Shown here: positions 15,746 through 22,571 of the stretch, in pieces
Numbering within the stretch: position 1 is the first letter of the stretch
How the letters are laid out: each line of letters begins with the position of its first letter
From: Yeosuana aromativorans
GTDB lineage: Bacteria > Bacteroidota > Bacteroidia > Flavobacteriales > Flavobacteriaceae
Reading direction: 5' to 3'
Length of the DNA: 24,000 bases
NCBI RefSeq assembly: GCF_014646655.1
Contig: NZ_BMNR01000006.1
Coordinates: 199,419-223,418 of the forward strand
The notes under the pieces: generated by a model
Told to the model about the DNA's origin: nothing
Databases searched by the model: none
Seen by the model: only the letters and a program-made list of their open reading frames with translations
Program-made: the position numbers and the translations under genes

Positions 15746-16621
15746 TTAATTTTTTAGTGCTTGCTGTAGCTTTTTTGCCCTAACAATGGCCTGTTCATTT
15801 TTCCAGTCAATCCATTTTTGTCCTTGTATACGTCGCATGGCATTGTCATAATACCGCATAATCAGCAAGTTATAAACCGCTTTGCTAAAGTTTTTTGGGT
15901 TTCTGGCTATCGCCCGCAAACTCATGGAAAACCCAGGAGTAATGTAGCGCATATAATGCCAATAACCTTCAGGCATGTATAAAACCTCACCATGATTCAG
16001 TTCCGTTTTATAACCTTTGGCTTTTTTAAGCAAAGGCCATTTTTCAAAATCTGGATTGGCAAAATCAATGTCCTCACGTGTTATCAAGGAGTGCGGCACT
16101 TTGTACAGGTAGTCATTCTGTTGTTGGTCAAACAAAATAATCTGTTTGGTGCCTTCAAAATGAAAATGAAAAATATTGGCCAAATCAATATCATAGTGCA
16201 TAAAGGTGTACGAATCCCGTCCACCAAAAAACAACATGGGAAGATCCTTCATCAGGCGCAACCCAAAATCAGGAAACGTAAAATCATCTTGCAACTGGGG
16301 AACTTCCTTTAAAATATTCCATAAAAAAATACGGTATCTGGTAGGCTCCTTTTTCAGCAGATCAATGTAATCGGCCATCTTCATTTTAAAATGAGGCTCA
16401 TTAAAGCCATCCTTATAATCAACAGGCCTATCATCATATAATGGAACGGTGACATCTCCTGCAACCGCCTTCATGTAATCTAAATTCCATTTGCTGTATG
16501 CGGGCCAATGGGTAATGCACTGCTCAATAACCACCGGTTTCTGTGGCTTAAAATACTGATTGATAAAGTCGGGCTTAGTTATCGTTTTAACACGAGGGAT
16601 GTCTTGTAGGTTCAATGCCAT
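15746..16621 (-). CDS. JmjC / cupin-8 domain protein, putative Fe(II)/2-oxoglutarate oxygenase (291 aa)
   Basis: FMH142YD144IDLANIFHFHFEGTKQIILF (HxD, then G.K) and GEVLYMPEGYWH222YMRY match the JmjC facial triad and surrounding strands. Confidence 0.75.
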   Translation of the reverse strand: MALNLQDIPRVKTITKPDFINQYFKPQKPVVIEQCITHWPAYSKWNLDYMKAVAGDVTVPLYDDRPVDYKDGFNEPHFKMKMADYIDLLKKEPTRYRIFLWNILKEVPQLQDDFTFPDFGLRLMKDLPMLFFGGRDSYTFMHYDIDLANIFHFHFEGTKQIILFDQQQNDYLYKVPHSLITREDIDFANPDFEKWPLLKKAKGYKTELNHGEVLYMPEGYWHYMRYITPGFSMSLRAIARNPKNFSKAVYNLLIMRYYDNAMRRIQGQKWIDWKNEQAIVRAKKLQQALKN

Positions 16622-16809: not shown

Positions 16810-17904
16810 TTACTTGACAGCCTTAGCCTTTAGTTTGGCAGCTTCGTTACGTTCTATTTTATGATCAGGGCGCGTCCATTTTGGATTTTCGCCCAAAGGT
16901 TGGTATTGTGATTCTGAAGCCTCTACCGTTTGTGGCTGAACCTTTTTTGCAAAGGGCTTTTGTGGTGTTAAACCCAGTTCCTCAAACATCTTCATATCTT
17001 CATTCACATCAGGATTTGGAGTGGTCAACAATTTATCACCCGCAAAAATGGAATTAGCGCCTGCAAAGAAACACATGGCTTGCCCTTCTCGGGTCATTTG
17101 TGTGCGTCCTGCGCTTAATCTAACTTGGGTTTCTGGCATAACAATACGCGTGGTGGCTACCATACGTATCATCTCCCAGATAGAAACGGGCTCTTCATTT
17201 TCTAGAGGTGTTCCCTCAACAGCAACCAAGGCATTAATGGGCACCGATTCTGGCTGTGGGTTCAATGTTGACAAAGACACCAGCATACCAGCTCTGTCTT
17301 CTACTTTTTCACCCATGCCAATAATACCACCGCTACAAACCGTAACATTGGTTTTTCTAACGTTATCAATAGTTTGTAAACGGTCTTCAAACCCACGGGT
17401 TGAAATCACTTGTTTATAATATTCTTCTGAAGAATCTAAATTATGATTATAGGCATAAAGGCCGGCTTCTGCCAAACGCTTTGCTTGGTTTTCGGTGATC
17501 ATGCCCAAGGTACAGCACACTTCCATGTCCAGTTTGTTAATGGTACGCACCATCTCCAATACTTGGTCAAACTCTTCACCATCCTTTACATTACGCCAGG
17601 CGGCACCCATGCACACACGCGAACTCCCGTTTGATTTGGCACGTAAGGCTTGTGCCTTAACTTGCTGGACACTCATTAAATCATTGCCTTCAACACCCGT
17701 ATTATAACGGGCTGCTTGCGGACAATAACCACAATCTTCTGAACAGCCCCCCGTTTTAATGGACACCAAAGTACTTACCTGTACGGTGTTTGGGTCATGG
17801 TGTAACCGATGAACGGTTGCTGCCTCATATAGCAGTTCCATTAAAGGTTTGTTATATATGTCTAAAATCTCTTCTTTAGTCCAATTGTGTCTTGTCGTGC
17901 TCAT
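16810..17904 (-). CDS. bioB: Biotin synthase BioB (radical SAM, 364 aa)
   Basis: CSEDCGYCPQ radical-SAM CxxxCxxC motif, auxiliary-cluster Cys residues (EVCCTLG, TVCSGGIIGMGE) and the YNHNLD motif. Confidence 0.95.
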   Translation of the reverse strand: MSTTRHNWTKEEILDIYNKPLMELLYEAATVHRLHHDPNTVQVSTLVSIKTGGCSEDCGYCPQAARYNTGVEGNDLMSVQQVKAQALRAKSNGSSRVCMGAAWRNVKDGEEFDQVLEMVRTINKLDMEVCCTLGMITENQAKRLAEAGLYAYNHNLDSSEEYYKQVISTRGFEDRLQTIDNVRKTNVTVCSGGIIGMGEKVEDRAGMLVSLSTLNPQPESVPINALVAVEGTPLENEEPVSIWEMIRMVATTRIVMPETQVRLSAGRTQMTREGQAMCFFAGANSIFAGDKLLTTPNPDVNEDMKMFEELGLTPQKPFAKKVQPQTVEASESQYQPLGENPKWTRPDHKIERNEAAKLKAKAVK

Positions 17905-17954: not shown

Positions 17955-19112
17955 TTAAATTTTGTTCAATAATATGCTTACTGCATTACCACCAAACCCA
18001 ACTGCATTTACCATAATACGTTTAATTGTATTTGGTGCTTTTTGATTCTTTATATATGGAATACCTACAAACTCTTGATGTTGTAACATGAATACAGCCA
18101 GTTCTATACTTAAGGAGCCAGAAGCTCCAAACGTATGTCCAATTTTCCATTTGTTAGAGGTTAGGGCTGGTCTATTGTTTTTAAAAACAGTGTCAATGGC
18201 ATTACATTCTGAAAGATCGCCTTTTATGGTTCCAGGGGCATGCATCACAATCACATCCACATCGTCAGTATTGGTGTCTCCCAAAGCCATACGCATGGAT
18301 TTTTGAAAACATTTTGCATCGCTTGAAATGGAAATATTATGCTCTAAAATTTCGGTGGCATAGCCTATTCCACTTACAAAAGCCAAAGCATTATCTTTTT
18401 TGCCAGCTTCCAAACAGAGCATGGAAGCGCCTTCGCCCAAAACCATCGTGTTTTGCTTTTTATCAAGGTCTAAAGCCCTGCATGGAAACGTATTGTTCTC
18501 TCGTGCATATATTTTTAAGGCTTGCATTTGTGCAATGGTAAAAGGCGTTAATGGTGCCTCACTACCACCAACCAAAAATTTTTGGCACATGCCTGAATTA
18601 ATCCATGCAATACCATTTAACAAGGCGTGCAACGCTGTTGAACAGGTGATGGAATGACTGATTTCTGGCCCTTCAGTTTGTAAATCGTGTGCCACCCAAG
18701 AGGAAATGTTTCCCAAAGTAGTAGTAGGCGAACTTAAGGTTTGTGTTGAATTGTTTTTCAGAAAATCATCGTAGTAAGCTTCAAAAAGCTGTGTTGCCCC
18801 ACGTGAAGAACCAATGTTAATACCAAAGTTATCAGAACCGTTCCAACCAGCTTGTTTTATGGCTTGTCTGGATGCATACATGGCATACAGAACCGTATTG
18901 TCAAGTGATTTGTATTTATTGTCTGAATTCCGTAAGGTTTCAATCTCCAGCCTTGCTTCTGTAGGAAGTTCTGCCACTAAAGCGCTTGAATTTCCAAATA
19001 CTTTTTCAGTAATATAGTGCTGGTTGTTTTGATAGTGTTTCCAGATTTCCTCTGCTGATTTCCCAAGAGGTGATATAGATGCAATAGCTGTTATTGAAAT
19101 TGGGGTTTTCAA
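17955..19112 (-). CDS. FabB/FabF-type (KAS I/II-like) beta-ketoacyl synthase embedded in the biotin operon (385 aa, TTG start)
   Basis: GPEISHSITC157STALHAL (nucleophile Cys), VIVMH291APGTIKGD, KWKIGH326TFGASG and C-terminal GFGGNAVSILL give a Cys-His-His thiolase-fold condensing enzyme. There is no in-frame ATG before residue 78, so TTG at 19112 is the likely start. Confidence 0.8.
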   Translation of the reverse strand: MKTPISITAIASISPLGKSAEEIWKHYQNNQHYITEKVFGNSSALVAELPTEARLEIETLRNSDNKYKSLDNTVLYAMYASRQAIKQAGWNGSDNFGINIGSSRGATQLFEAYYDDFLKNNSTQTLSSPTTTLGNISSWVAHDLQTEGPEISHSITCSTALHALLNGIAWINSGMCQKFLVGGSEAPLTPFTIAQMQALKIYARENNTFPCRALDLDKKQNTMVLGEGASMLCLEAGKKDNALAFVSGIGYATEILEHNISISSDAKCFQKSMRMALGDTNTDDVDVIVMHAPGTIKGDLSECNAIDTVFKNNRPALTSNKWKIGHTFGASGSLSIELAVFMLQHQEFVGIPYIKNQKAPNTIKRIMVNAVGFGGNAVSILLNKI

Positions 19113-19134: not shown

Positions 19135-20400
19135 TTATACTATTTCCAAAGCATCTTCAATTACTTGATAGACTTTCTCTAATTGCTCTTTGGCGATAAT
19201 GTAAGGTGCCTGGATATAAATAGTGTTTCCTAAAGGTCTTAAAAACACACCATGTTTCATAAAAAAAGAAAACAATTTATCACGCAAATTACCATAGCGG
19301 GACATTTCAACATTTAAATCCAATGCAAAAACAACACCTGTTTGTCGTGTTGATTTTACTTTTGGATGAGTTTTTATGTGATTCCCAAATTCTTGGTGTG
19401 ACGCAATGATGCATTTTATGTTGTCTTGTATTTTTGAGGATTGTAACAATTCCAGACCCGCCAGAGCGGCCGAGCAAGCTAGTGGATTGGCAGAATAAGT
19501 ATGACCGTGAAACAGGCCTTTACTAATGTCATCACTATAAAACCCATCATAAATGTGTTGTGAGCAGGATGTGATGGCCATTGGTAACAAACCAGCCGTT
19601 AGCGCTTTACTTAAGCACATAATGTCCGGTTTGGTATTCATATGTAAAGAGGCAAAATGCTTTCCTGTTTTACCAAAACCAGTCATGACCTCATCGGCTA
19701 CGGTTATAATATCGTGTTCTTTGCAAAACTGTAATATCAAATCCAGTCCGGTGGCGTCATGCATTTTCATGGCGGCTGCTCCTTGAACCAATGGTTCATA
19801 AACAAATCCAGCTACTTTGTTGGTTTTAACAATATCAGCCAACATTTCTAAAACAGCATGATGGTTATGACCGTTTGGTGTTGGAATGCGTTTGACATCC
19901 AAAAAGAAATCCTCAAACGGACCGTTATAAACAGATAGGCTAGACACACTCATGGCCCCAAAGGTGTCTCCGTGAAAACCATCCTCAAAAGCAATAAGTG
20001 TGTTGCGTTTATCACCTTTGTTAAAATGATATTGCAATGCCATTTTAATGCCTATTTCTACACAAGTTGACCCATTATCACTAAAAAACAGTTTGTTTTG
20101 GTTTTTGGGTAAGATTTTGATGAGTTCTTCCGATAGTTTTACAGCTGGTTCATGGGTAAATCCGCTAAACACCACTTGATCCAACTGTTGCATTTGTTGA
20201 TGCACTCTGTTGGTGATAAATTCATTGCAATGGCCATACATACAGGTGTACCAAGAAGCAATGGCATCAATGTATTCATTACCGTTTTCGTCATACAGCA
20301 TGCAATCTTTTGCCTTGGTAATAGCAATAGCTTCTGGATGCAACTTGTGCTGCGTTAATGGGTGCCAAAGGTGTTTTTTATCGCGTTCTTGAATGCTCAT
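19135..20400 (-). CDS. bioA: Adenosylmethionine-8-amino-7-oxononanoate aminotransferase BioA (421 aa)
   Basis: Class III PLP aminotransferase with BioA-type N-terminus (HLWHP..Q), FSDNGSTCVE, DEVMTGFGKTG, and LSKALTAG (PLP lysine). It overlaps the bioD stop (ATGA). Confidence 0.9.
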   Translation of the reverse strand: MSIQERDKKHLWHPLTQHKLHPEAIAITKAKDCMLYDENGNEYIDAIASWYTCMYGHCNEFITNRVHQQMQQLDQVVFSGFTHEPAVKLSEELIKILPKNQNKLFFSDNGSTCVEIGIKMALQYHFNKGDKRNTLIAFEDGFHGDTFGAMSVSSLSVYNGPFEDFFLDVKRIPTPNGHNHHAVLEMLADIVKTNKVAGFVYEPLVQGAAAMKMHDATGLDLILQFCKEHDIITVADEVMTGFGKTGKHFASLHMNTKPDIMCLSKALTAGLLPMAITSCSQHIYDGFYSDDISKGLFHGHTYSANPLACSAALAGLELLQSSKIQDNIKCIIASHQEFGNHIKTHPKVKSTRQTGVVFALDLNVEMSRYGNLRDKLFSFFMKHGVFLRPLGNTIYIQAPYIIAKEQLEKVYQVIEDALEIV

Positions 20401-21005
20401 AATTTGTCTTTAAATAGTTCGGCGTATTCTTTAACCACATTTTTGTCAAAATACGGTTCTTCATCAATACGACCGATAACCGAAACATTGGTCATCTTTT
20501 TGATGATATCCTCAGTGGATTTATGTTCGTTTCCACTAAAAATAATGGACACATTAAATCCTTTTTCTTTTAATAAATTAACGGTTAACAAGGTATGGTT
20601 AATACTTCCCAAATAGTGTCTGGAAACCACAATGACCTTGTAGGTTGGCTTTATGATATCCAAAATGGTTTGCCGCTCATTCAACGGTACCAATAATCCA
20701 CCAGCGCCTTCAATGACCAAATTGTTTTTTGTTTTAGGTTTCTGTATTTGTTTCAAGTCTATTTCAATTCCATCAATTTTGGCAGCAGCATGCGGACTCA
20801 TAGGTGTTTTTAACGCATAACTGTTGGGGTGGAATTTTGTTTTTGAATTGGACACCAGTTTTTCAACTTTATGTGTATCAGAATGGTCTAAATCTCCTGC
20901 TTGAATGGGTTTCCAATAATCGGCCTGTAAGGCTTCAACCAATATGGCTGATGCTACAGTTTTGCCAACTTCTGTGGAGATTCCCGTGACGAAATAGGTA
21001 TTCAT
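20397..21005 (-). CDS. bioD: Dethiobiotin synthetase BioD (202 aa)
   Basis: MNTYFVTGISTEVGKT P-loop, YWKPIQAG, and VIEGAGGLLVPL motifs. Confidence 0.9.
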   Translation of the reverse strand: MNTYFVTGISTEVGKTVASAILVEALQADYWKPIQAGDLDHSDTHKVEKLVSNSKTKFHPNSYALKTPMSPHAAAKIDGIEIDLKQIQKPKTKNNLVIEGAGGLLVPLNERQTILDIIKPTYKVIVVSRHYLGSINHTLLTVNLLKEKGFNVSIIFSGNEHKSTEDIIKKMTNVSVIGRIDEEPYFDKNVVKEYAELFKDKL

Positions 21006-21382
21006 TTAAAAATGGTTTTACAATGATTACATATATGTTTTGACTTTTCAAAAAAGGGGAAAAGCATATAAAAAATATTTTTTCGATTTGGTGGGGCTGT
21101 TAAAATACGCGTGGAATGACAATTGGGGCAGTAAATATCGTTGCCATTTTTGTCTTTGTGATAGGGTCTTACCTCATCGTATACTTCAATGGCTTTGTCT
21201 AAATCCTGGTTATGGACCAAAAGCTTAACACCACCAATGGCTAGGCTAATCAATGGGTCTGAATCAATTGTTTTTTCATCAGCCAACATAGTTCTTATGT
21301 TTTCCGATTCCAATTTGGATTTTATGATTTGCGCCTCCGTGGAATATTCAAAAACAGCCAAGACGGTATAATTGTCATTCAT
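21002..21382 (-). CDS. DUF2007-like (PII-like fold) domain fused to a C-terminal CxxC...CxxC zinc ribbon (126 aa), function unknown
   Basis: The N-terminal ~70 aa (VLAVFEYSTEAQIIKSKLESENIRTML...GGVKLLVHNQDLDKAIEV) fits the DUF2007 pattern. C-terminal CPNCHS...(24 aa)...CNHCKT. It overlaps bioF by 8 nt and bioD by 4 nt. Confidence 0.6.
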   Translation of the reverse strand: MNDNYTVLAVFEYSTEAQIIKSKLESENIRTMLADEKTIDSDPLISLAIGGVKLLVHNQDLDKAIEVYDEVRPYHKDKNGNDIYCPNCHSTRILTAPPNRKNIFYMLFPFFEKSKHICNHCKTIFK

Positions 21383-22532
21383 CTAGTTTATGTTTTGATA
21401 CAAAAGTAGCCAACAACTGCAAGACTTTGGTAATTTCTTCTTTTGAATTAAAAGTGTGTAAACAAAAACGCAGTCGCTCTTCTCCTTTAGGAACCGTTGG
21501 TGATAAAATAGGTTTGACATCAAATCCTTGTTCTTTAAGTTTTTGGGAAATGGCTTTTACCGTATCGTTCCCCGAAACCACGCAGCAATGAATGGCCGAA
21601 TGACTATCAATAAAATAATCTTGGAGCTTGTTTTTTATAACCTCACTTTTAAAAAACGATATGTTTTGATGTAACTGTATTCTGTTTTCAGTTTCAATTA
21701 ATTTATGATAAGCAGCATGTATGGTTGCCAATGAATGTGGAGGCAATGCCGTGGTGTAAATAAAACTACGTGAAAAGTTAACCAAGTATGCTTTAAGATC
21801 CTTATTTGTAAGAATGGCAGCACCATGACAGCCCAAGGCTTTTCCAAAAGTTACCAAACGCGCAAACACTTGGTTTTCCAATCCTAATTCTTGAATAAGC
21901 CCAACGCCATGATTACCAAACACACCAACGGCGTGTGCTTCGTCTACAATAAAATATGCTTGATGGGTTTTGCAAAGTTGGGACATGGCTTTTAAATCTG
22001 GCGAATCACCATCCATAGAGAATACAGATTCAGTAACCACATAAACATTGATGTCATGCTGAACTCGTTTCAGCATCTCACTGAGGGATTCTAAATCATT
22101 ATGCTTAAACTTGTAAGCCTTGGCATGGCTCATTGCAATACCATCACGAATGGACGCATGGATATATTCATCGTATAAAATAATGTCACCACGTTGCGGT
22201 ACGCTTGAAAAGAAGCCAATATTGGCATCATAGCCCGAATTAAAAATCAAGGCTGACTCGCTGTTATGAAAATCTGACAGAATGGTTTCCAAAATAGGAT
22301 ACAATGGATGGTTTCCAGAAAGCAAACGAGACCCCGTAGCACCGTTCTGTTTTATGTTATGGCTCATTAAAAAGTCATGTGCTGCATCGAAGATGCTTTC
22401 TGATTTTGCAAATCCCAAATAGTCATTTGAAGAAAAATCTACCAAACTGTTTTGTTTGCCAAGTTGCCGTAAGGCATTAGCCGCTTCTCGGTCTTTAAGT
22501 TTGGATTTTAACTTTTTCGGCAAATGGTTCAT
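21375..22532 (-). CDS. bioF: 8-amino-7-oxononanoate synthase BioF (385 aa)
   Basis: Alpha-oxoamine synthase signatures: DFSSNDYLG, GSRLLSGN, SGYDANIG, SMDGD, DEAHAVGVFG, TFGKALG (PLP lysine). First gene of the bio cluster. Confidence 0.85.
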   Translation of the reverse strand: MNHLPKKLKSKLKDREAANALRQLGKQNSLVDFSSNDYLGFAKSESIFDAAHDFLMSHNIKQNGATGSRLLSGNHPLYPILETILSDFHNSESALIFNSGYDANIGFFSSVPQRGDIILYDEYIHASIRDGIAMSHAKAYKFKHNDLESLSEMLKRVQHDINVYVVTESVFSMDGDSPDLKAMSQLCKTHQAYFIVDEAHAVGVFGNHGVGLIQELGLENQVFARLVTFGKALGCHGAAILTNKDLKAYLVNFSRSFIYTTALPPHSLATIHAAYHKLIETENRIQLHQNISFFKSEVIKNKLQDYFIDSHSAIHCCVVSGNDTVKAISQKLKEQGFDVKPILSPTVPKGEERLRFCLHTFNSKEEITKVLQLLATFVSKHKLDE

Positions 22533-22536
22533 AATA

Positions 22537-22544
22537 CAAAAATA
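22537..22544 (-). promoter_or_regulatory. Candidate bio operon promoter -7 box (TATTTTTG) only 4 nt from the bioF ATG
   Basis: The minus strand reads ATAGTATTTTTG-TATT-ATG. This is a TAnnTTTG match inside the 39-bp divergent gap between bioF and the M61 peptidase gene. Confidence 0.4.
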
Positions 22545-22571
22545 CTATCTTAGTCGCTTAAATTTTTACCC

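Follow-up and report, generated by a model that had tools for sequence, protein, structure and literature searches.

From the 24,000-nucleotide stretch of Yeosuana aromativorans DNA analyzed here (Flavobacteriaceae; contig NZ_BMNR01000006.1 of assembly GCF_014646655.1, positions 199,419 to 223,418 of the forward strand; the whole stretch is called the window in the following and is numbered from its first letter), a biotin operon can be deduced in which a divergent condensing enzyme of KAS I/II type (KAS for beta-ketoacyl-ACP synthase, with ACP for acyl carrier protein) is encoded between bioA and bioB. Gene neighborhood, sequence divergence and the predicted acyl pocket suggest that this enzyme, referred to simply as KAS below, is probably dedicated to supplying the pimelate arm of biotin. 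Window coordinates were taken from a six-frame open reading frame (ORF) table and checked by direct coordinate arithmetic, giving the following run of six genes.

21375-22532, minus strand: bioF (best match TIGR00858 at 346.8 bits, under the cutoff of 426)
21002-21382, minus strand: orf126, a DUF2007-like protein of 126 aa (weak match to PF09413, 29.4 bits)
20397-21005, minus strand: bioD, dethiobiotin synthase (TIGR00347, 125.8 bits versus a cutoff of 83.3)
19135-20400, minus strand: bioA, adenosylmethionine-8-amino-7-oxononanoate transaminase (TIGR00508, 533.9 bits versus a cutoff of 405)
17955-19112, minus strand: divergent KAS I/II-type condensing enzyme of 385 aa with a TTG start (PF00109 and PF02801)
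16810-17904, minus strand: bioB, biotin synthase (TIGR00433, 404.6 bits versus a cutoff of 225)

Hence, bioB, bioA and bioD all score above the curated NCBIfam equivalog cutoffs, while bioF stays below its own. Proceeding from bioF to bioB, the genes overlap by 8, 4 and 4 nt, after which come two intergenic gaps: bioA ends 22 nt upstream of the KAS gene, and bioB starts 50 nt downstream of it. The KAS gene is intact, and its product matches a protein of Y. aromativorans, a marine member of the Flavobacteriaceae, with 100% identity. Its start codon TTG occupies positions 19110-19112, the first in-frame methionine follows only about 75 residues further downstream, the conserved N-terminal beta-strand of the family begins four residues after the TTG, and homologues are likewise 384-385 aa long. 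Together, these features support TTG as a credible start codon. An earlier note on this DNA, made from the sequence without database searches, had arrived at the same start and KAS coordinates as well as at the same gene order, overlaps and gaps, all of which were reproduced.

Both KAS domains were recognized above their gathering scores (PF00109 with 91 bits and PF02801 with 61.6 bits). At the level of full-length models, however, KAS stays below the respective cutoff in each of the 19 NCBIfam KAS models among the matches listed, fabF and 18 others, the best being fabF (TIGR03150) with 152.7 bits versus a cutoff of 493.75. The best sequence match among solved structures is also a FabF, with 102 bits. 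Compared to the Escherichia coli FabF, in a sequence identical to PDB 6OKG, the window protein is about 28 residues shorter and shows about 21-24% identity, and across the family the mean identity is 24% and the maximum 28%. By contrast, the family itself is coherent. Among 1.84 billion cluster representatives, 462 clusters (50% identity) match KAS at E <= 1e-30. For the best 150 of these 462 representatives, the top score is 580 bits, identities lie within 37-67% and lengths are mostly about 370-410 aa, and even the 150th-best still reaches 245 bits, compared to the 102 bits for the best FabF in the PDB. An AlphaFold2 monomer model of KAS was obtained at high confidence (predicted local distance difference test, pLDDT, 92.2; predicted template modeling score, pTM, 0.94), with residues 121-140 as the sole low-confidence stretch. 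When this model was compared with the PDB by Foldseek, the best matches were FabF structures with template modeling (TM) scores of 0.88-0.91, and the top 50 matches consisted nearly exclusively of bacterial or mitochondrial FabF/KAS II enzymes (TM-scores 0.86-0.91), with a single FabB entry from E. coli among them. KAS is thus no FabF orthologue, and the family to which it belongs is old, diverse and distinct within the KAS II fold. Public annotation is confined to the domain level, with members being named by NCBI's annotation pipeline (PGAP) only as 'beta-ketoacyl synthase N-terminal-like domain-containing protein'. Several family members from Pontibacter carry the name 'beta-ketoacyl-ACP reductase' in NCBI and UniRef, which is a misannotation, as these proteins are ketosynthases.

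For comparing catalytic and acyl-binding residues, 26 and then 139 family representatives were aligned with the FabF and FabB of E. coli, where the sequence used for FabB is unverified. The positions most relevant for the following are these.

18642-18644, minus strand: Cys157, catalytic, in ITCSTALHAL, corresponding to FabF Cys163 and invariant in 139/139 representatives
18240-18242, minus strand: His291 in MHAPGT, corresponding to FabF His303 and invariant in 139/139 representatives
18135-18137, minus strand: His326 in IGHTFGASG, corresponding to FabF His340 and invariant in 139/139 representatives
18150-18152, minus strand: Lys321, corresponding to FabF Lys335 and invariant in 139/139 representatives
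18801-18803, minus strand: Arg104 in the motif GSSRGAT, aligned with the 'back gate' residue Ile108 of FabF, Arg in 139/139 representatives
18717-18731, minus strand: Ser128-Pro129-x-Thr131-Thr132 (SPxTT), aligned with Val134-Pro135-Ser136-Thr137-Ile138 of FabF

The triad of Cys157, His291 and His326, which had been proposed at exactly these motifs, is confirmed by the alignment, and in addition the lysine and the GFGG gate of this enzyme class are present, with Phe373 (FabF Phe400) being invariant in all 139 representatives. Moreover, the equivalent of FabF Thr307 is retained in 135/139 representatives, and those of Asp311 and Glu314 are invariant across the 26-sequence alignment. With these catalytic residues conserved, KAS should carry out a normal decarboxylative Claisen condensation with malonyl-ACP.

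By contrast, the residues lining the acyl pocket of FabF are replaced throughout the family. The position of Ile108 is isoleucine in FabF and a gap in the unverified FabB sequence, while all 139 representatives bear arginine. The SPxTT motif is nearly as strictly kept (Pro129 in 139/139, Ser128 in 138/139, Thr131 and Thr132 in 135/139 each), which amounts to an exchange of FabF Val134 for serine and of Ile138 for threonine in 138 and 135 of the representatives, respectively. Likewise, Leu111 is replaced by threonine in 131/139, Phe133 by threonine, alanine or serine, Gly198 by threonine and Phe202 by methionine, and a glutamine specific to the family, Gln195, is found in 138/139. Judged by this alignment, the hydrophobic FabF-type acyl pocket, the Ile108/Phe202 gate of which lets in chains of C8-C16, is lacking in the KAS family. 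In FabF, Ile108 and Phe202 form a back gate that an acyl chain in the pocket meets at about C7-C8 (PMC9006962; see also PMC7138838), and an I108F mutant is limited to the elongation from C6 to C8 (PMC9006962). Consequently, an arginine at this site should truncate the pocket, shut out long chains and put a positive charge at roughly C5-C7. A pocket that is predicted to be polar and cationic would fit a short acyl primer ending in a carboxylate.

These findings also bear on another explanation for the gene, namely that it encodes the housekeeping FabF of its genome. Although the nearest relatives in fold and sequence are indeed FabF structures, the score of 152.7 bits compared to the 493.75 required, the low identity of about 24% to the E. 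coli enzyme and a PGAP name that remains at the domain level are all at odds with this assignment, and so is an invariant arginine at a gate through which long chains have to move. The fatty acids made by Flavobacteriaceae are iso-C15 to C17. As, moreover, the KAS gene is not found beside acpP, fabG or fabD in any of the loci described below, a housekeeping role is hardly credible.

For following the gene through its relatives, 185,579 species genomes were scanned with a 10-sequence alignment, yielding at least 587 relatives, of which 80 loci were kept, all from Flavobacteriaceae and with KAS proteins at 64-78% identity. More distant loci were obtained from the representative search and the contigs encoding these proteins as well as from a metagenome scan seeded with distant members. 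In total, 171 loci amounting to 2.56 Mb were examined. The counts for Flavobacteriaceae, obtained by own ORF calling and BLASTP, include the window itself, and those on linkage refer to the 139 loci with enough flanking sequence. In 128 of these 139, a biotin gene lies on the same strand within 6 kb of KAS, that is, in 80/80 Flavobacteriaceae genomes, 8/9 distant representatives and 40/50 evaluable metagenome loci. With such a recurrence, the arrangement is not due to chance. Among the 80 Flavobacteriaceae loci, bioA (78), bioD (77) and bioF (76) are found upstream of KAS on the same strand, and bioB shares its strand in 62. A co-occurrence with bioA and bioB across Flavobacteriia had been put forward as a check by the earlier note; linkage to a biotin gene is seen in all 80 Flavobacteriaceae loci and extends far beyond this class. 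Gene order is rearranged in the distant loci. KAS proteins of only 36, 38 and 46% identity are encoded in the arrangements bioD-bioA-KAS, bioF-bioD-bioA-KAS and bioD-bioF-KAS-bioB, respectively, and in a marine lineage with 52%-identical KAS the only conserved pair is KAS-bioB. Pontibacter korlensis (Cytophagales) shows bioB-bioF-bioD-bioA-KAS, a Marinimicrobia contig bioB-bioF-bioD-bioA-(FA_hydroxylase)-KAS, an Ignavibacteria contig bioA-KAS and a metagenome-assembled genome labeled Deltaproteobacteria bioF-bioD-bioA-KAS. Linkage to biotin genes that persists with rearranged orders points to functional coupling and not to inherited gene order, and the fact that it has survived in several phylum-level lineages argues strongly for a function in biotin synthesis.

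Co-location might also be explained without any such role, if KAS were a lipid or secondary-metabolite condensing enzyme merely placed among, or co-regulated with, the biotin genes, for example for making a short-chain or specialized fatty acid or as a paralogue of fatty acid synthesis tied to them via the biotin-requiring acetyl-CoA carboxylase. The generic family annotation and the roughly 8% of evaluable loci that lack biotin linkage would be compatible with this. However, linkage holds down to 36% identity and in several phylum-level lineages while the adjoining partner changes among bioA, bioD, bioF and bioB, and neither acpP, fabG and fabZ nor any reductase or thioesterase gene was found travelling with KAS in the loci examined. 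Beyond biotin genes and unrelated local genes, no conserved neighbor at all was detected in the 171 loci, a placement in a fab cluster or next to acpP included, and the unlinked loci do not share a common alternative neighborhood. An unrelated lipid function is therefore very improbable.

Several loci show insertions into the operon or noteworthy adjacent genes. In 24/80 Flavobacteriaceae loci, a pair encoding flotillin (SPFH) and NfeD is located on the same strand between KAS and bioB (e.g., L022:11213-13225), which splits the operon and leaves KAS adjoining bioA. Six loci with Marinimicrobia-type clusters encode a 418-aa membrane FA_hydroxylase (PF04116) between bioA and KAS (L168:8738-9994, L114:1460-2716 and partial copies in L096 and related loci). 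PF04116 is a family of membrane fatty-acid hydroxylases, and the protein could act as a partner particular to this clade or, alternatively, make the precursor by oxidation. In the Marinimicrobia contig, KAS is directly followed by a run of kynurenine-pathway genes on the opposite strand (L168:11334-20580), encoding a formamidase-like cyclase, kynurenine monooxygenase, kynureninase, an ACMSD-like amidohydrolase, 3-hydroxyanthranilate dioxygenase (3-HAO), RidA and an aldehyde dehydrogenase. As this pathway leads to 2-oxoadipate and glutaryl-CoA, the run is suggestive of a primer supply at this one locus.

Biotin clusters need a source of pimeloyl-ACP or pimeloyl-CoA, for which the established routes are BioC plus an esterase (BioH, BioG, BioJ, BioK or BioV), BioI, BioW and BioZ. 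As BioF, BioA, BioD and BioB already cover ring assembly, the vacant job in the operon is the supply of the pimeloyl thioester. Among the window ORFs scanned with profiles, no gene was found for a methyltransferase, an esterase, a P450, a pimelate ligase, a KAS III or a ferritin-like protein, in agreement with the previous statement that the operon encodes none of the known pimelate routes. The list of routes on which this statement was based lacks BioE, published in December 2025 for Weeksellaceae (PMC12704756). Searches were extended to the sequence within ±8-10 kb of KAS in the other loci. With the E. coli BioC and BioH sequences as queries, which score 524 and 587 bits, respectively, with their NCBIfam equivalog models, neither tblastn nor phmmer gave a credible match in the 2.56 Mb. 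A conserved methyltransferase or cytoplasmic esterase family is missing from the 171 loci, and a bioC, bioH, bioG or bioE-like gene was found in none of them. A scan of all locus ORFs for the BioE-type diiron ligands, which addressed the motif only, resulted in nine matches, none of them ferritin-like and beside biotin genes. The only weak BioH-like matches correspond to an alpha/beta-hydrolase encoded between KAS and bioB in four loci (L030:11170-12144, L070:11183-12220, L050:13357-14331 and L046:13247-14320). It bears a signal peptide and, being apparently secreted, is unlikely to act as a pimeloyl-ACP methyl esterase. None of the other genes inserted into the operons is plausible for BioC, an esterase or another pimelate function either, i.e., flotillin and NfeD, an opposite-strand membrane protein, a LysR regulator, a SET-domain ORF, a TraB/GumN-like protein, an extracytoplasmic function (ECF) sigma factor, further membrane genes and a genuine acetate-CoA ligase.

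Comparison with other Bacteroidota and their relatives helps in judging this result. Bacteroides carries bioC and bioG inside its biotin cluster (PMC3494674), and in Balneolaceae, another family of the Fibrobacteres-Chlorobi-Bacteroidetes (FCB) group, bioC is part of the cluster and a recognized esterase is reported to be lacking (PMC9909488). Weeksellaceae, the sister family of Flavobacteriaceae, are devoid of all routes known before and possess bioE beside bioFD/BA (PMC12704756; PMC12915131). With Bacteroides bioC/bioG and Weeksellaceae bioE as examples, a clade-specific pimelate gene within the cluster is typically the norm in the phylum, and it is this position that KAS appears to occupy here. 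Still, KAS might act as a helper in a BioC-dependent route, elongating the methyl esters of malonyl-ACP and/or glutaryl-ACP, if bioC and an esterase were encoded elsewhere in the genome and methyl esters were poor substrates for the bacteria's own housekeeping FabF or FabH. Linkage to biotin genes fits such a helper as well as it fits a BioC-independent enzyme. In addition, a glutaryl-ACP methyl ester has the length of a C7 acyl chain (PMC9006962), which would place the ester at the Ile108/Phe202 gate, where arginine or threonine could form a hydrogen bond to it, the Balneolaceae provide the case of a bioC gene without a recognized esterase (PMC9909488), and the search for bioC covered the sequence flanking the KAS loci only. 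On the other hand, the methyl ester serves to make the chain look hydrophobic, a purpose for which a pocket with an invariant cation and polar lining is ill-suited. Furthermore, the 171 loci show no conserved methyltransferase or cytoplasmic esterase although bioC and bioG of Bacteroides and bioC of Balneolaceae are encoded within the cluster, and the sister family Weeksellaceae is entirely without BioC and BioH (PMC12704756). On balance, a role as BioC-dependent helper appears unlikely.

The reading we prefer, and consider probable though far from certain, is that KAS is a dedicated, KAS II-derived analogue of BioZ which makes the pimelate arm of biotin via 3-oxopimeloyl-ACP. In this reaction sequence, a short acyl primer with a free omega-carboxyl group would be loaded onto Cys157, most likely a glutaryl thioester (C5), either as glutaryl-ACP or as glutaryl-CoA originating from lysine or tryptophan catabolism. 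Arg104, which is invariant, would hold the distal carboxylate together with the serine, threonine and glutamine residues around it, all of these standing in for the hydrophobic FabF pocket formed by Ile108, Leu111, Phe133, Val134, Ile138 and Phe202. After decarboxylation of malonyl-ACP with participation of His291 and His326, condensation would give 3-oxopimeloyl-ACP, which the housekeeping enzymes FabG, FabZ and FabI could reduce to pimeloyl-ACP, the substrate of BioF. A precedent for this logic is BioZ, which condenses a glutaryl primer with malonyl-ACP, the product 3-oxopimeloyl-ACP being processed by FabG, FabZ and FabI (PMC7645780; PMC8024396). In the crystal structure of BioZ with a bound glutaryl moiety, the C5 carboxyl group is hydrogen-bonded to Ser84 and Ser287 (PMC12625853). 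Regarding substrate, independence from BioC and BioH and the reduction steps, we infer the proposed function from comparative genomics, and as a whole it is a strong inference of this kind, not a demonstration. The idea that a FabB/FabF-like enzyme supplies pimelate in the manner of BioZ had been raised by the earlier note and is now supported by synteny, sequence divergence, pocket composition and the absence of linked bioC and bioH genes. In the literature searched, which included papers on BioZ and BioE as well as reviews up to mid-2026, a KAS I/II with a biotin role is not described, which bears out the accompanying remark that none was known to be characterized.

Several observations weigh against a BioZ-like function. 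BioZ binds the carboxylate by two serines, and its Arg147 is dispensable; pairing Arg104 with the carboxylate is accordingly proposed on chemical grounds and not transferred from BioZ. The location of Arg104 in the pocket is deduced from the sequence alignment with FabF, and it is right in the SPxTT loop (residues 121-140) that the monomer model has its lowest confidence. The search for other pimelate genes reached ±10 kb around each KAS gene, and no conserved CoA-transferase or ligase that might supply glutaryl-ACP or glutaryl-CoA was found in the clusters. In 11/139 evaluable loci, Pedobacter sp. BS3 among them, KAS is without a nearby biotin gene. Finally, KAS I/II enzymes normally use acyl-ACP primers.

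The need for a supply of glutaryl thioester might be circumvented if KAS itself catalyzed both condensations with a free carboxylate, starting from a malonyl primer (C3) that is not decarboxylated and continuing with the resulting glutaryl chain (C5), so that neither the disguise as a methyl ester nor external glutaryl-CoA would be needed and FabG, FabZ and FabI would do the reductions. Such iteration would be in line with polar residues along the whole predicted pocket (Ser103, Thr107, Ser128, Thr131, Thr132, Thr192 and Gln195), with the lack of a conserved glutaryl-supply gene in the clusters and with the occurrence of the family in lineages of very different catabolism. However, it is without precedent and would require FabG, FabZ and FabI to accept 3-oxoglutaryl-ACP with its free carboxyl group, a kind of processing that the logic of BioC and BioH in E. 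coli suggests to be disfavored (PMC12915131), and an arginine at the gate position corresponding to C7-C8 lies far from the carboxylate of a C3 primer. Hence, we regard two successive condensations by KAS as quite improbable and a single condensation with a glutaryl primer as the probable reaction.

Within the operon, orf126 overlaps bioF by 8 nt and bioD by 4 nt, which suggests translational coupling. The N-terminal half of the protein is DUF2007-like, and a four-cysteine ribbon (CPNC...CNHC) is located C-terminally. A homologue is encoded upstream of KAS at the intervening position between bioF and bioD in 49/80 Flavobacteriaceae loci; the Pontibacter, Marinimicrobia and deltaproteobacterial clusters lack it. 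The orf126 product may represent an uncharacterized biotin accessory protein. On the other side of the operon, 188 nt downstream of bioB, a Cupin_8 (JmjC-like) gene is present on the minus strand (15746-16621) and found in 42/80 loci, but since it travels with omp and recX and not with the biotin genes, its product probably has no place in the pathway. Further genes scanned in the window encode an M50 protease, glutamate dehydrogenase, PorZ, RecO, an M61 peptidase and an outer-membrane beta-barrel-like protein with signal peptide. The bioF start codon is separated by only about 39 nt (22533-22571) from the ATG of the divergently oriented M61 peptidase gene (22572), so the bio promoter and any operator must overlap the 5' end of this neighbor. 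K-mer and palindrome analysis of 76 loci for a shared operator upstream of bioF resulted in AT-rich k-mers only and no convincing palindrome, and in a scan for sigma70 promoters and terminators, the models of which do not cover Bacteroidota promoters, counts were not above those for shuffled sequence.

In biotin synthesis, it is the origin of pimelate that varies and has caused surprise time and again, with each new route (BioC/BioH, BioI/BioW, BioZ and BioE) being a finding of note. The KAS family probably adds an undescribed, ketosynthase-based route to the seven-carbon pimelate arm, belonging to a KAS class different from that of BioZ. If true, this would fill the missing early step for a very large and ecologically important group of bacteria, namely most Flavobacteriaceae sampled, Hymenobacteraceae such as Pontibacter and Adhaeribacter and members of Ignavibacteria and Marinimicrobia. 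The carriers include many abundant marine and soil heterotrophs, the vitamin status of which matters for models of microbial communities. Also annotation would have to be corrected, where family members now appear as 'fabF', 'beta-ketoacyl synthase' or 'beta-ketoacyl-ACP reductase', as pathway tools would otherwise score KAS-bearing genomes as being without pimelate synthesis. Moreover, the enzyme would represent a natural case in which the KAS II pocket has been rebuilt to accept a charged dicarboxylate and could be useful for ketosynthase engineering and for the production of pimelate and biotin. In the event that KAS is iterative, these bacteria would even possess a one-gene de novo pimelate pathway free of BioC and BioH that is widespread in the marine and soil FCB group.

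Among the characterized systems, the BioZ of Agrobacterium tumefaciens (PDB 6KUE) is a close counterpart. Like KAS, it is a stand-alone condensing enzyme of the thiolase superfamily encoded in bio clusters without bioC and bioH, and the condensation of a C5 dicarboxyl primer with malonyl-ACP to 3-oxopimeloyl-ACP, completed by type II fatty acid synthesis, has been shown for BioZ and is proposed for KAS. Both would also employ hydroxyl groups for contacting the omega-carboxylate, namely Ser84 and Ser287 in BioZ and, deduced from the alignment, Ser128, Thr131 and Thr132 in KAS, there together with Arg104. In other respects the two enzymes differ. BioZ is a FabH-like KAS III about 35% identical to FabH, with a Cys-His-Asn triad and an acyl-CoA primer (PMC7645780), whereas KAS has the domains PF00109 and PF02801, a Cys-His-His triad plus lysine and a GFGG gate, and its primer is expected to be bound to ACP. 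As KAS possesses neither the FabH-like fold nor the Cys-His-Asn triad defining BioZ, it is at most a functional analogue and not a member of that family. The taxonomic ranges are different as well, with BioZ occurring in alpha-proteobacteria and KAS in Bacteroidota, Ignavibacteria and Marinimicrobia. With the E. coli FabF (PDB 2GFW, 6OKG), KAS shares the fold, both Pfam domains and the catalytic equivalents, but FabF has a hydrophobic acyl pocket and an acpP-adjacent gene, while the pocket of KAS is predicted to be polar and its gene resides in bio operons. BioE of Weeksellaceae and Chlamydia resembles KAS in being a clade-specific, bio-cluster answer to the pimelate step, and both are found in Flavobacteriales. 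However, BioE is an unrelated ferritin-like diiron oxygenase (ligands E41, E68, H71, E140, E170 and H173) that catalyzes an oxidative cleavage at C7-C8 of long-chain acyl-ACP or acyl-CoA, and its gene lies beside the bio operon, usually with that of the regulator BioL. Finally, the human mitochondrial ketosynthase OXSM, which is among the top Foldseek matches of KAS, and the FabF variants I108F and I108M illustrate that the residue at the position of Ile108 sets the accepted chain length. In contrast to KAS, these enzymes have a hydrophobic gate without a charged residue and act on ordinary fatty-acyl substrates.

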